Origin: Candidatus Methanomethylicia archaeon
Lineage (GTDB): Archaea; Thermoproteota; Methanomethylicia; Culexarchaeales; Culexarchaeaceae
Assembly (NCBI GenBank): GCA_038727515.1
Contig: JAVYVS010000002.1
Coordinates: 192,001-256,000, forward strand
Length of the DNA: 64,000 nucleotides
Direction of reading: 5' to 3'
The position numbers and the translations under genes are program-made. Shown in pieces: positions 9,066 through 12,845 of the stretch (within the stretch, counting starts at the first letter, position 1; each line of letters starts with the position of its first letter). The notes under the pieces are model-generated. The model was not told the origin of the DNA. It saw only the letters and a program-made list of their open reading frames with translations, and ran no database searches.

Positions 9066-9932
9066 GTGGTGTTTTATATGGGTGTTGATAAGGTTAGAAT
9101 TGCAATTGTTAAGTATGGTTGTATAGGGAGTTCACCATTGCTAGAGATTATGCTTGATGAAAGGGCTAATAGAGAGGATATAATTGTAAGAGTGTTTTCC
9201 ACTGCTGGTAAAATGGAGGTTGAAGATTGTTTATCTATAAGTGATTATGTAGTGTCTTTTAATCCACATTTAATAGTAAATGTAACTCCAAATGCTTCTT
9301 TGGAAGGTCCCACTAAAGGTAGGATGGATTTAAAGGAGAAACTTCCTAAGACACCTATAATTGTAATTTCCGATGATCCTGCACGTAAAGTTATTAAGGA
9401 TATGGAGGATGCAGGTTTTGGATATATTATTGTTAGAGCTGATCCTATGATTGGTGCTAGAAGAGATTTTCTAGATTCCACTGAAATGGCTTTATTTAAT
9501 GGATATCTACTTGTGATTTTATCTGCTACTGGTGTTGTTAGAATGCTTGTATCTGAAATCGATAAAGTTATTGAAGCTATTAAATCTGGTGTTGAAGTTA
9601 AACTTCCAAGGATTGTGGGTGATGCTCTTTTCGTTGTTGAGAATTATGGTGGATTTAAGAATCCTTATGCTAAAGCTAAAGCTATAGCTAGTTATGAAGC
9701 TGCAGCTAGAGTTGCAGCTCTATCTACTGCTGGATGTTATACCTTGAAGGAGAGGGAACAATATATTCCAATGGTTGCAGCTGCCCATGAACTTTTGAGG
9801 TATGCTGCTTTACTTGCTGATGAAGCTAGAGAGATAGAGAAGTATGGTGATAGTGTTTATCGTACTCCACATTTATCGAGTGGTGAAGTTAGATTTAAAT
9901 TTAAGTTGATGGAAGAAGCTAAAAAAGGTTAA
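9066..9932 (+). CDS. mtd: F420-dependent methylene-tetrahydromethanopterin dehydrogenase
   Basis: LDERANRED, DPMIGARRDFLD-EMALFN, F-NPYAKAKA, AAHEL, ADEAREIEK, RTPH match Mtd along the full length; start may be ATG 9078. Confidence 0.93.
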   Translation: MVFYMGVDKVRIAIVKYGCIGSSPLLEIMLDERANREDIIVRVFSTAGKMEVEDCLSISDYVVSFNPHLIVNVTPNASLEGPTKGRMDLKEKLPKTPIIVISDDPARKVIKDMEDAGFGYIIVRADPMIGARRDFLDSTEMALFNGYLLVILSATGVVRMLVSEIDKVIEAIKSGVEVKLPRIVGDALFVVENYGGFKNPYAKAKAIASYEAAARVAALSTAGCYTLKEREQYIPMVAAAHELLRYAALLADEAREIEKYGDSVYRTPHLSSGEVRFKFKLMEEAKKG

Positions 9933-10006: not shown

Positions 10007-11713
10007 GTGGGTAAATGGGTTGTATGTGCAGCTTGGCCTTATGTTAATGCTTTCCCTCATCTTGGAACTATGGTTGCATGTATAATTTCACCAGATGTAT
10101 TTGCAAGATATCTTAGGGCTAAGGGTGAAGAAATTGTGTTTGTTAGTGGATCTGATGAACATGGAACCCCCATTGAAGTTGAAGCTAGGAAGATGAATAT
10201 TCCACCTAAAAAGCTTACTGATGAACTTCACAATTATGTATTAAAGTTATATGAAAAATTGGGTGTTAGCTATGATAATTATACTAGAACTGAGAATCCT
10301 ATACATATAGATTTTGTTCAGAAGTTTTTCATGAAATTATATGAAAATGGATACATATACGAGAAGGAGGTTTCACTACCATTTTGCCCTAATTGCAATA
10401 TCTTCTTACCAGATAGATTTATTGAAGGTACATGTCCATATTGTGGTGAAACTAGAGCTAGAGGAGATCAATGTCCATCATGCAATAGGATTTTAGACCC
10501 AGTGGATCTACTGGAACCACACTGTGTCTTTTGTGGTTCTAAACCTGAAGTTAAAGTGACTAAACATTGGTTTTTTGATCTCCCTAAACTCTCAGATAAA
10601 CTTATGAATTTCGTTAATAATCATAAATTGTTTTCTGAGAGTATTAAGAATTATTGTAAGATGTGGTTTAAGGAGGGGTTGAAGGCTAGATCTATAACTA
10701 GGGATAACTCTTGGGGTATACCAGCACCCTTCCCAGGAGCTTCTGGAAAGACTATATATGTGTGGTTTGAAGCTTTATTGGGTTATCTCTCAGCAACTAA
10801 AGAGTATTTTATTAAGAAGGGATTTGAAGATTTATGGCTTGAATACTGGCTTAATAAAGATTCAAAGACTGTATACTTCATTGGTAAAGATAATATACCA
10901 TTTCATGCGATAATACTGCCAGCAATGCTCATGGCTTCTGGAGAAGGATATGTTCTTCCTTGGCAGATATCTTCAGTTGAATTTCTAATGTTTGAAGGTC
11001 AAGCTTTTAGTAAGAGTAGGGGTATAGGTGTTTGGATTGATGAAGCTTTAGAAATTGCCCCAGCAGATTATTGGAGGTTTGCATTAATACTAATGAGACC
11101 TGAAACTAGAGATTTAAATTTCACATGGGAATCTTTCCATCGTATCGTTAATGCTGAAATCAATGATAACCTTGGAAACTTTGTTCATAGAACTTTAAGC
11201 TTCATATACTCTAGATTTGATGCTAAGATTCCTAAACCATATGAACTTGATGATAGGGATAGATCAATGTTATATAAACTTAAGTTTGCACCTAAAAATA
11301 TTGGTGCTTTAATTGAAGATCTTAAGTTAAAGGCTGCTGCTGAATCTCTACTTGAATTCTCCTCCTCCGGTAATCAATATTTAAATGATAAAGCCCCTTG
11401 GAGAACTATTAAAGAAGATTTTGAAGTTGCATCTACAACTATGTGGGTTGCAGCTAATGTCGTTAAATCCTTAGCTATATTGATGGCACCCTTCATGCCA
11501 TTTTCCGCTGATAAAGTTTGGTATTATCTCAATTTAGGGGGCTCAGTTCACGAAGTTTGTTGGGATGATGCTTCAAAAGCAGATTTACAATATGGACATA
11601 GGATCAATAAGCCTGAGCCTTTATTTACAAAGTTTCCTGATGATTTTGTTAAAACTATAAATGATAGGTTGAAGGATGTGAGAATGCGTTTGAAAAGACC
11701 GGAGTTAGCTTGA
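10007..11713 (+). CDS. metG: Methionyl-tRNA synthetase (no C-terminal Trbp domain)
   Basis: AWPYVN..PHLGT (HIGH), SGSDEHGTPI, four CxxC knuckles, YVWFEA, IGKDNIPFH, AFSKSRG (KMSKS). Confidence 0.96.
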   Translation: MGKWVVCAAWPYVNAFPHLGTMVACIISPDVFARYLRAKGEEIVFVSGSDEHGTPIEVEARKMNIPPKKLTDELHNYVLKLYEKLGVSYDNYTRTENPIHIDFVQKFFMKLYENGYIYEKEVSLPFCPNCNIFLPDRFIEGTCPYCGETRARGDQCPSCNRILDPVDLLEPHCVFCGSKPEVKVTKHWFFDLPKLSDKLMNFVNNHKLFSESIKNYCKMWFKEGLKARSITRDNSWGIPAPFPGASGKTIYVWFEALLGYLSATKEYFIKKGFEDLWLEYWLNKDSKTVYFIGKDNIPFHAIILPAMLMASGEGYVLPWQISSVEFLMFEGQAFSKSRGIGVWIDEALEIAPADYWRFALILMRPETRDLNFTWESFHRIVNAEINDNLGNFVHRTLSFIYSRFDAKIPKPYELDDRDRSMLYKLKFAPKNIGALIEDLKLKAAAESLLEFSSSGNQYLNDKAPWRTIKEDFEVASTTMWVAANVVKSLAILMAPFMPFSADKVWYYLNLGGSVHEVCWDDASKADLQYGHRINKPEPLFTKFPDDFVKTINDRLKDVRMRLKRPELA

Positions 11714-11716
11714 TTT

Positions 11717-11722
11717 GAGGTG
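11717..11722 (+). promoter_or_regulatory. Shine-Dalgarno GAGGTG of hypD
   Basis: GAGGTG 5 nt upstream of TTG 11728, immediately after the metG stop. Confidence 0.65.
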
Positions 11723-11727
11723 GGAAT

Positions 11728-12845
11728 TTGGAGTTACATGGTTTATTGAGGGATAAATCTTTGGCTCTTAGAGTTGCTAAGTACATTGATGAACGATGTT
11801 TTAAGAGTAGATATTTAATTATGCATGTTTGCGGCACACAGCCTTTTAAGGCTGGCCGATACATGAATATACAATAACGCATTTTGGAATACGCAACTTA
11901 ATACCAAAGATCGATTTAAGAGCTGGACCTGGATGTCCTGTTTGTGTCGCTTCACCAGTAAATATTGATTTAGCAGTTAATCTATCTCTACATGAAAATG
12001 TTATTGTCACAACTTTTGGCGATATGTTTAGAGTTAGAGGCTCTAAATATTCTCTGATGGATGCTAAGAGTATGGGTGGTAGAGTTACCATTGTTTATAG
12101 TATAAATGATGCTATTGAAATTGCTAGGAAAAATCCTAATTTTGAAATTGTTCATTTCGCTATTGGTTTTGAGACTACAGCTCCCTCCACAGCCGCTATT
12201 CTTTTATCTAATCCTCCAAGAAATTTCTCTATAATACCTACACATTTATTGATACCTCCAGTTATGTCTTATCTACTCAATCTTGGTGAAATTGGTATTG
12301 ATGGTTTTATATGTCCAGGTCATGTTTCAACTATTATTGGTGTTAAACCATATTTAGAGATTTCAATTTCCAATAAGGTTCCAATGGTTATAGCTGGATT
12401 TGAACCTTTAGATGTTCTATTTGGAGTCGCAATGCTTATCGATATGATTAATAATGGTGAATTTACTGTTAAGAATGAGTATAGTCGTGCAGTTAAATTT
12501 GAAGGTAATGTTAAAGCTATTCAATTGATGAATGAAGTATTTAGGGTTTCTGATGCTTATTGGCGTGGTATTGGTTTAGTTCCCAATTCTGGTTTAGTTC
12601 TTAGAGAAGAATTTTCAGATTTTGATGCTGTGAAGAAGTTTGATATTGAAGTTGAAGAAGATTATAGTATGCCTAAAGGTTGTAGGTGTGGTGATGTACT
12701 TAGGGGTTTAATTATGCCTCATGAATGCCCCTTATTCTCAAAATCATGTACTCCAGATAATCCTATAGGTCCATGTATGGTTTCTTCTGAAGGTGCATGC
12801 TCTATATTGTATAAGTATGGTGGATACATGTATTTAAAACGTTAA
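11728..12845 (+). CDS. hypD: Hydrogenase maturation protein HypD, split gene: exon 1 11728-11837 and exon 2 11861-12845, 364 aa after removal of a 23-nt insert
   Basis: Exon 1 from TTG ends ...IMHVCGT; exon 2 continues HEYTITHFGIR...AGPGCPVCV...TTFGDMFRV, in frame with ORF 12024-12845 (GFETTAP, PGHVS, C-terminal CRCG...C...C, GPCMVSSEGAC). Confidence 0.93.
11838..11860 (+). other. Putative 23-nt bulge-helix-bulge (tRNA-type) mRNA intron in hypD
   Basis: Central helix CGGC(11832-35)/GCCG(11855-58); bulges ACA(11836-38) and ATA(11859-61); inner stem CAGCCT/AGGCTG with loop TTTA; cutting after nt 2 of each bulge restores the reading frame and CGTH. Confidence 0.85.

Follow-up and report, generated by a model that had tools for sequence, protein, structure and literature searches.

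Sequence evidence for a bulge-helix-bulge intron in the coding region of hypD in a Methanomethylicia archaeon

We analysed a 64,000-nt stretch of DNA from an uncultured archaeon, Candidatus Methanomethylicia archaeon (assembly GCA_038727515.1, contig JAVYVS010000002.1, positions 192,001 to 256,000 of the forward strand; hereafter the window, numbered from its first letter). In this stretch the gene for the hydrogenase maturation protein HypD is interrupted within its essential Cys-Gly-Thr-His motif, at CGT|HE. All features of the locus lie on the plus strand. hypD is directly downstream of the methionyl-tRNA synthetase (MetRS) gene, whose stop was read at 11711-11713, and a Shine-Dalgarno-like GAGGTG (11717-11722) was read 5 nt before its TTG start at 11728. 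This start agrees with that of a 365-aa intron-less ortholog (P0003). The TTG opens a 49-codon reading frame that reads ...IMHVCGT and ends at the stop at 11875-11877. A second frame, from 11862, reads HEYTITHFGIR...GPGCPVC... and ends at the stop TAA at 12843-12845. A sequence-only reading made earlier had described the TTG start with its GAGGTG, the 49-codon product and the resumption of the frame at HEYTITH, all of which we read in the same way, and it had attributed the interruption to a 23-nt mRNA intron of the bulge-helix-bulge (BHB) type. Our analysis indicates that the 23 nt at 11838-11860 are very probably a genuine BHB intron in the hypD coding sequence, spliced by the endonuclease EndA and the ligase RtcB.

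The first exon (11728-11837, 110 nt) encodes ...IMHVCG and the first two bases of the Thr codon, and the second exon (11861-12845) supplies the third base of that codon followed by HEYTITH...GPGCPVC.... Exon 2 alone matched Pfam HypD (PF01924) with 434.6 bits and E = 3.5e-130 over model positions 29-351 of 351, while exon 1 alone (37 aa) gave no Pfam match. GPGCPVC, GFETT, PGHVS and the C-terminal Cys-rich stretch are all readable in exon 2, and CGTH is present only once the insert is removed. Removal joins GGC AC|A CAT GAA, which reads G-T-H-E, and gives a HypD of 364 codons with the N-terminal CGxH motif, the GPGCPVC motif and the C-terminal Cys cluster of a full-length member of the family. 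The predicted spliced junction is TGCGGCAC|ACATGAATAT and the predicted junction-spanning peptide is HVCGTHEYTITHFGIR. Because both edges of the insert are A, it can equally be placed at 11839-11861. Its G+C content is 12/23 (52%) vs 32.9% for the whole genome, as expected from the earlier description of a GC-rich insert in an AT-rich genome. ARAGORN found no tRNA in the window, and an Rfam scan of 11500-12200 with E up to 1 found no family. The gene order MetRS-hypD-ABC transporter is kept in one relative.

The insert and the exon sequence on either side of it fold into the geometry of a BHB. CGGC at 11832-11835 (codons TGC GGC) pairs with the intron-internal GCCG at 11855-11858 to form a 4-bp central helix, which was obtained in the minimum free energy (MFE) fold, in the alignment of relatives and with RNAalifold. 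This helix stands between two 3-nt bulges on opposite strands, ACA (11836-11838) and AUA (11859-11861), both from the MFE fold and the RNAalifold consensus. Inside the intron, an inner stem-loop (11839-11854 in the MFE fold) has 6 bp, with CAGCCU at 11839-11844, a UUUA loop and AGGCUG at 11849-11854. The positions and pairs of the central helix, bulges and inner stem were correct in the sequence-only reading. On the exon side, UUUG (11828-11831) faces CAUG (11862-11865, the His codon and the first base of the Glu codon, placed by the alignment and RNAalifold) as the two strands of an outer, exon-exon helix. In line with the published rule for cbf5 and tRNA (PMC2738675), we placed each cut between residues two and three of its bulge, which puts the predicted 5' cut after 11837 and the predicted 3' cut after 11860. 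As had been claimed, these cuts restore G-T-H-E and the 364-residue HypD. The free energy of the 11815-11880 fold was -19.6 kcal/mol vs -10.9 ± 2.5 kcal/mol for shuffled sequences (z = -3.5), and none of 200 shuffles was as stable. This fold holds the CGGC/GCCG helix, the unpaired ACA and the 6-bp CAGCCU/AGGCUG stem.

Orthologs of hypD were collected by protein search of 41 related genomes, and the DNA upstream of the HE codons was then read. Including the window, 22 hypD sequences (21 others, all archaeal) were interrupted at precisely this codon, by inserts 20-33 nt long. The carriers belong to three lineages and comprise genus-level Culexarchaeales-like relatives of the window, Ca. Culexmicrobium (C. 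thermophilum and C. cathedralense, of the window's order), Nezhaarchaeota/Nezhaarchaeales, and six Bathyarchaeia. Searched with a DNA pattern, 13 of the 62 genomes from the class showed the insert, as did 16 records in a species-level genome collection. A structure-blind pattern, accepting any insert of 11-47 nt at the site, matched 13 of 401 sampled genomes of the phylum, and all 13 matches showed a BHB. Inserts of 21, 27 and 33 nt carry in-frame stops and all the others shift the frame. The predicted join gives ACN, and hence Thr, in 22/22 sequences, although the third base of bulge 2 varies among relatives. Intron-less orthologs read exactly as the predicted spliced sequence.

These relatives also help to judge whether the insert arose as an error of sequencing or assembly. 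The only point in favour of such an artefact is that the genome is a draft in 12 contigs, apparently derived from a metagenome. A 95%-identical relative in an independent Logan assembly (SRR32459164) carries the same 23-nt insert with one substitution in the loop, two 86% relatives (JGI and Logan assemblies) carry a 27-nt version, and 19 distinct versions of the insert occur in independent public genomes. The chance of an artefact is therefore close to nil, and the insert is real.

The Bathyarchaeia inserts have features of their own. Five of them are of a 33-nt version that always begins with TGAC, and thus with an in-frame TGA; its inner stem, at 8 bp, is longer and shows covariation among the members of the group. 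In one further Bathyarchaeia sequence (L060) the insert is 28 nt long, and its central helix contains an A.G mismatch.

We aligned 19 distinct sequences and counted the BHB pairs. The paired cells amounted to 94.7% vs 28-38% with slid partners, and six pairs were altered on both sides. The covariation score was 0.376, vs 0.185 for shuffled alignments and at most 0.125 for slid controls, and 0/500 shuffles reached the observed value. The central helix was nearly invariant, with C:G or U.G at its inner end, and was paired in 98.7% of cells; its intron-internal strand, GCCG, was invariant in 19/19 sequences. All five aligned pairs of the inner stem covaried, with changes on both sides among relatives. 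For the outer helix, alignment columns 14-17 and 58-61 were paired in 96% of cells, and the canonical 4-bp helix was complete in most relatives (16/19 aligned sequences). RNAalifold, run with no input structure, returned outer and central helices of 4 bp each, two bulges of 3 nt and an inner helix. The presence or absence of the insert among relatives and the compensatory stem changes, which the sequence-only reading had proposed to look for in an alignment of hypD, were thus both found. As inserts occur at the same site in 21 other sequences with matching stem changes, the mRNA is very probably spliced by the tRNA-splicing enzymes.

The third pair of the outer helix joins the third base of the Val codon to the third base of the His codon. 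It was G:C in 10 sequences, A:U in 4, G.U in 2 and unpaired in 3, the window being among the unpaired. As a control, this pair could be formed in 18/22 intron-bearing vs 10/19 intron-less sequences, a difference that is suggestive only, because the sequences are related. The codons of the central helix gave a further view of synonymous sites. In long open frames of this genome, TGC accounts for 20.7% of the codons for Cys and GGC for 5.3% of those for Gly, so that the remark that TGC GGC runs against the codon bias was borne out. All intron-bearing sequences (22/22) used TGC for Cys, and 21/22 used GGC or GGT for Gly, with GGA in one Bathyarchaeia sequence. Intron-less orthologs of AT-rich genomes have TGT GGT/GGA at the same site. 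These codon counts support the view that the RNA helix would constrain synonymous sites of hypD.

The conserved structure and the bases around it also bear on ribosomal bypassing, in which the ribosome, helped to take off by the hairpin, would hop over the insert much as happens in gene 60 of phage T4. A stable hairpin does lie directly after the Thr codon, and bypassing would yield an identical protein. However, no pair of codons matches as take-off and landing sites, a ribosome that landed on ACA at 11861-11863 would meet TGA next, and relatives differ freely in the final three bases of the insert (AUA, AAA, ACU, AGU, AUC and others). Moreover, bypassing needs no BHB geometry, yet the 4-bp helix, the two 3-nt bulges and the exon-exon helix are conserved or covarying. 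We regard bypassing as highly improbable.

Selection on the interrupted gene was estimated from pairs of sequences. Exon 2 is open for 324-334 codons in 22/22 intron-bearing sequences. The dN/dS ratio between the window and the 95% relative was 0.079 (dS 0.28). It was 0.08-0.13 between the window and most relatives, 0.04-0.13 in most other intron-bearing pairs, 0.25 between the window and one relative (L008), and 0.095 in an intron-less pair. The substitution pattern indicates that the interrupted hypD is under strong purifying selection. The genome also has a second, uninterrupted hypD on contig 11 (L002 1-2580), which encodes 353 aa, is 46% identical and sits on a very long tree branch; the order of its cluster is hypE, a small Cys-rich open reading frame (ORF), hypC and hypD. 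In this it differs from five relatives (G006, G009, G018, G026 and G024; 93-99% complete), which hold only the interrupted type, as their only HypD-family match. Four of these five were checked for hydrogenases, and each had 5-6 matches to the [NiFe]-hydrogenase large-subunit family.

The gene might instead be a pseudogene, inactivated by a hairpin-forming insertion, with the contig 11 paralog doing the work. The uninterrupted hypD in the hypE-hypC-hypD cluster and the stop after 49 codons of the unspliced ORF would fit such a history. Against it, the dN/dS of 0.079 is within the range of intron-less orthologs, exon 2 has stayed intact in every intron-bearing sequence, and the same-site insert has persisted over three lineages with compensatory changes. 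The interrupted gene is also the sole hypD of the five relatives, including the four with [NiFe]-hydrogenase genes. A pseudogene is thus very improbable. The sequence-only reading had counted an intact paralog together with relaxed selection against its own proposal; the paralog exists, and the selection is not relaxed.

Public gene calls at these loci were examined by searching exon 2 against a collection of 5.8 billion proteins. Among the called proteins (HypD of 273-345 residues, starting in or after the insert), the starts MYAAH..., MRHTA... and MYAVH come from exon 1 translated in a wrong frame that continues across the insert, and other starts lie downstream of the insert. The calls do not include the conserved Cys of the CGTH motif, and some carry the NCBI name 'hydrogenase formation protein HypD'. 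Standard annotation thus yields a truncated gene, as had been anticipated. Of the 120 best database homologs, 18 are N-terminally truncated at CGxHE (among them P0007-P0009, P0014, P0061, P0090 and P0110). These truncated homologs look like systematic mis-calls caused by introns, and they suggest that intron-bearing hypD genes may be more numerous than the 22 studied here.

Such calls could be taken at face value, with HypD made as two split polypeptides, or with the hairpin as a terminator or attenuator and a truncated C-terminal protein as the sole product. The annotated proteins of 273-345 residues favour this, but the first listed in-frame start of exon 2 is ATG 12024, beyond GPGCPVC, and in relatives, translation from the annotated starts crosses the insert in the wrong frame. 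The products would also be without the conserved Cys of the CGTH motif, and the conserved bulge geometry and constant restoration of the frame would be left unexplained. We consider split or truncated HypD extremely improbable.

Several observations weigh against a spliced BHB intron. The outer helix of the window is weak, as had been noted before, with only two Watson-Crick pairs in the canonical register. The pairs in that register are G11831:C11862 and U11830:A11863, followed by a U.U mismatch and U11828.G11865, which corrects the pairing given earlier, and the MFE fold uses an alternative CAUGU/ACAUG pairing in place of the canonical outer helix. The window taken alone therefore has a strong central helix, bulges and an inner helix together with a weak outer helix, and fits at least the relaxed form of the BHB; the strict motif has flanking helices on both sides (h and h'), and in the relaxed motif one suffices. 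The aligned sequences are related, and the shuffle statistics are inflated because they treat them as more independent than they are; neither the slid controls nor the differences in stem sequence between the three lineages depend on this. As a second, intact hypD is present, the interrupted copy is not strictly required in this genome. Finally, a spliced full-length form was not found in the 5.8-billion-protein collection, a result that is uninformative about splicing, and all entries matching intron-bearing loci (at least 91% identity) were N-terminally truncated gene calls.

The genome has genes for the splicing machinery. Two EndA-family genes (PF01974) were found on contig 1 and contig 3, with 106.6 and 70.6 bits. 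The 188-residue EndA best matched catalytic chains of heterotetrameric enzymes (3P1Z_B, 3AJV_B, 2CV8 and 2ZYZ_B, of which 3P1Z_B and 3AJV_B are crenarchaeal), and by eye it has Tyr, His and Lys at the expected places. The 174-residue EndA is, by eye, without the catalytic His. Two genes, one of them without the catalytic His, suggest an EndA of the crenarchaeal (alpha-beta)2 type. Passages of PMC2738675 and PMC5829648 describe cutting of relaxed motifs outside tRNA by EndA of this type. RtcB is present with 605.8 bits, so the host encodes both a splicing endonuclease and the ligase. Introns were present in 13 of the 47 tRNA genes predicted by ARAGORN. One ARAGORN call, a tRNA-Phe(AAA) with a 755-nt intron on the minus strand of contig 6 (21518-22361), is either spurious or a case of a very long intron.

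From these enzyme genes and the conserved structure we infer the cleavage, the ligation and the identity of the enzymes, and the spliced-intron proposal of the sequence-only reading is supported by geometry, conservation and selection. In the proposed course of events, the hypD transcript would include the insert and would probably also cover the MetRS gene, the end of which is 14 nt upstream. The codons UGC GGC of the exon would pair with the intron GCCG to give the 4-bp central helix, flanked by the bulges ACA and AUA, the intron hairpin and the short exon-exon helix. EndA, built from the products of one catalytic-type and one structural-type subunit gene, would cut after the second base of each bulge. 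RtcB would then join ...UGC GGC AC|A CAU GAA... to encode Cys-Gly-Thr-His-Glu within the 364-residue HypD. Unspliced mRNA would yield only the 49-residue peptide.

We scanned the genome for other BHB motifs within genes. The scan of both strands for inserts of up to 130 nt gave 904 motifs with a score of at least 27, of which only 15 join two open frames; hypD was the best-scoring and the shortest of these. When inserts were limited to 60 nt, the hypD score of 33 was reached by only 15 motifs across the 1.59 Mb of the genome. A relaxed scan with no outer-helix requirement gave 33 candidates, cbf5 included, vs 15 in the strict scan. Among the scan candidates, only hypD and cbf5 had junction peptides that were recognised as conserved motifs, and the remainder were judged by eye to be gene-boundary or off-frame artefacts. 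Two settings were discarded: an initial BHB-plus-ORF scan that was too permissive (1285 candidates), and an exon filter keeping the longest of six frames, which lost hypD itself, since its short exon 1 is overlapped by an antisense ORF of 75 codons. A variant with a 2-bp inner stem recovered a BHB of the predicted length for 3/12 ARAGORN tRNA introns; with sensitivity this low, hypD and cbf5 cannot be claimed as the only such introns of the genome.

The cbf5 gene, for a pseudouridine synthase, on the minus strand of contig 2 is split at ~9290-9330 (L066 ~1795-1835) by a 19-nt BHB insert at GTL|DP. The insert has a CCCU/GGGG central helix, a GCCU/AGGC inner stem and 3-nt bulges. A 75-codon N-terminal ORF ends ...KAGHAGTL, and past the insert the frame resumes as DPKVSGVLPIALENATK; removal of the insert joins this ORF to a remainder of at least 236 codons. 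It looks like the published cbf5 mRNA intron, here in a Culexarchaeales-like lineage outside those in PMC2738675.

The top-scoring BHB-like motif of the genome is at ~108305-108345 on the plus strand of contig 2. It is 24 nt long, with a 7-bp inner stem and a 5-bp outer helix, and it sits in an uninterrupted frame that matches the [NiFe]-hydrogenase large-subunit family. It may be due to chance; since its length is a multiple of 3 and it has no stop, sequence alone cannot tell whether it is removed.

To place the intron in the history of the gene, we used a maximum-likelihood tree of 40 exon-2 proteins. All the intron-bearing hypD genes clustered in a single group of 25 members (support 87/80), within which two lineages lacking the intron were nested, one made up of three genomes from the window's family and the other of a single genome from family f3. 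The orthologs L004-L006 (genomes G003-G005, of the window's family) and L010 (G007) have no insert and read TGCGGTACA CATGAA. The fewest changes on the tree are three, for example one gain and two losses. The nesting of intron-less orthologs among intron-bearing ones, together with their reading like the spliced sequence, suggests two precise intron losses. The Bathyarchaeia rows of the tree were found through the intron pattern and intron-less Bathyarchaeia hypD are missing from it, so that this history is provisional. A further possibility, which we consider unlikely, is that the intron is old, has been kept vertically, is common to several archaeal classes and persists because splicing gates the production of HypD. 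The cell would then make HypD only if the activity of EndA/RtcB, or the folding of the RNA (at growth temperature, for example), allowed it.

In the searchable literature, BHB introns were found in tRNA, in rRNA, in the crenarchaeal cbf5 coding region and in one haloarchaeal 5' untranslated region (UTR), and no paper was found on an intron or BHB in hypD. PMC7714728 (2020) states that cbf5 is the only other mRNA case. The closest known system is the cbf5 pre-mRNA intron of Crenarchaeota (Watanabe 2002; Yoshinari 2006; Yokobori 2009, PMC2738675), which is likewise short and in a coding region (16-44 bp vs 20-33 nt in hypD). The two share predicted cuts between the second and third bulge residues, a motif that is often relaxed and tied to hetero-oligomeric EndA, and precise losses specific to lineages. 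They differ in the insertion site and in the product, which is a metallocentre-assembly protein for hypD and an RNA-modification enzyme for cbf5, and the intron-bearing hypD taxa are Methanomethylicia and Bathyarchaeia. No sequence relationship was seen between the hypD and cbf5 introns, and the hypD insert, not being located in cbf5, is not a homolog of the published one. Splicing of cbf5 has been established with cDNA and in vitro cleavage, whereas the hypD intron is known here from its sequence.

The BHB introns of tRNA and rRNA, processed by EndA and RtcB, have the same hBHBh' geometry, and the hypD insert is within the size range of tRNA introns. In hypD, however, the exon strands are codons rather than an anticodon arm, and because no tRNA body aids recognition, the motif must be recognised on its own. 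Such recognition has been published for the crenarchaeal heterotetrameric EndA (PMC2738675). The 5' UTR intron of Haloferax volcanii HVO_1309 is an mRNA substrate of EndA, confirmed by circRNA-seq and in vitro cleavage (Schwarz 2020, PMC7714728). That intron lies in an untranslated leader and interrupts no frame, whereas hypD needs splicing to make its protein. A more distant likeness is the Ire1/RtcB splicing of HAC1/XBP1 mRNA, in which a small, spliceosome-independent intron is cut at stem-loops and the ends are rejoined by tRNA ligase. Removal of that intron changes the frame and switches on the active protein. The enzyme there is Ire1 and not EndA, the recognition motif is another one and splicing is regulated by stress, while hypD splicing is not known to be regulated. 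This splicing of HAC1/XBP1 is named in PMC13149111.

The hypD intron joins a known but very small class of archaeal mRNA introns. In the searchable literature it is the second BHB intron in a coding region, it lies in a metabolic gene, and it is conserved over at least three lineages. Its substrate, of ~40 nt with clear predicted cut sites, is suited to the study of how EndA recognises a BHB outside tRNA. It is also a case of exon-intron co-evolution, in which the codons of an invariant protein motif double as the exon strands of a helix and would thereby shape synonymous codon choice. Because public HypD calls are truncated and without the conserved Cys, metabolic reconstructions may wrongly score hydrogenase maturation. 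If splicing did gate HypD production, hypD would be an archaeal counterpart of regulated unconventional splicing of the XBP1/HAC1 type, and EndA-dependent mRNA splicing would form a broader layer of archaeal gene expression than could be expected from the one published case. For the archaea that carry it, the hypD intron suggests that splicing of mRNA by the tRNA machinery may be a recurring part of gene expression.

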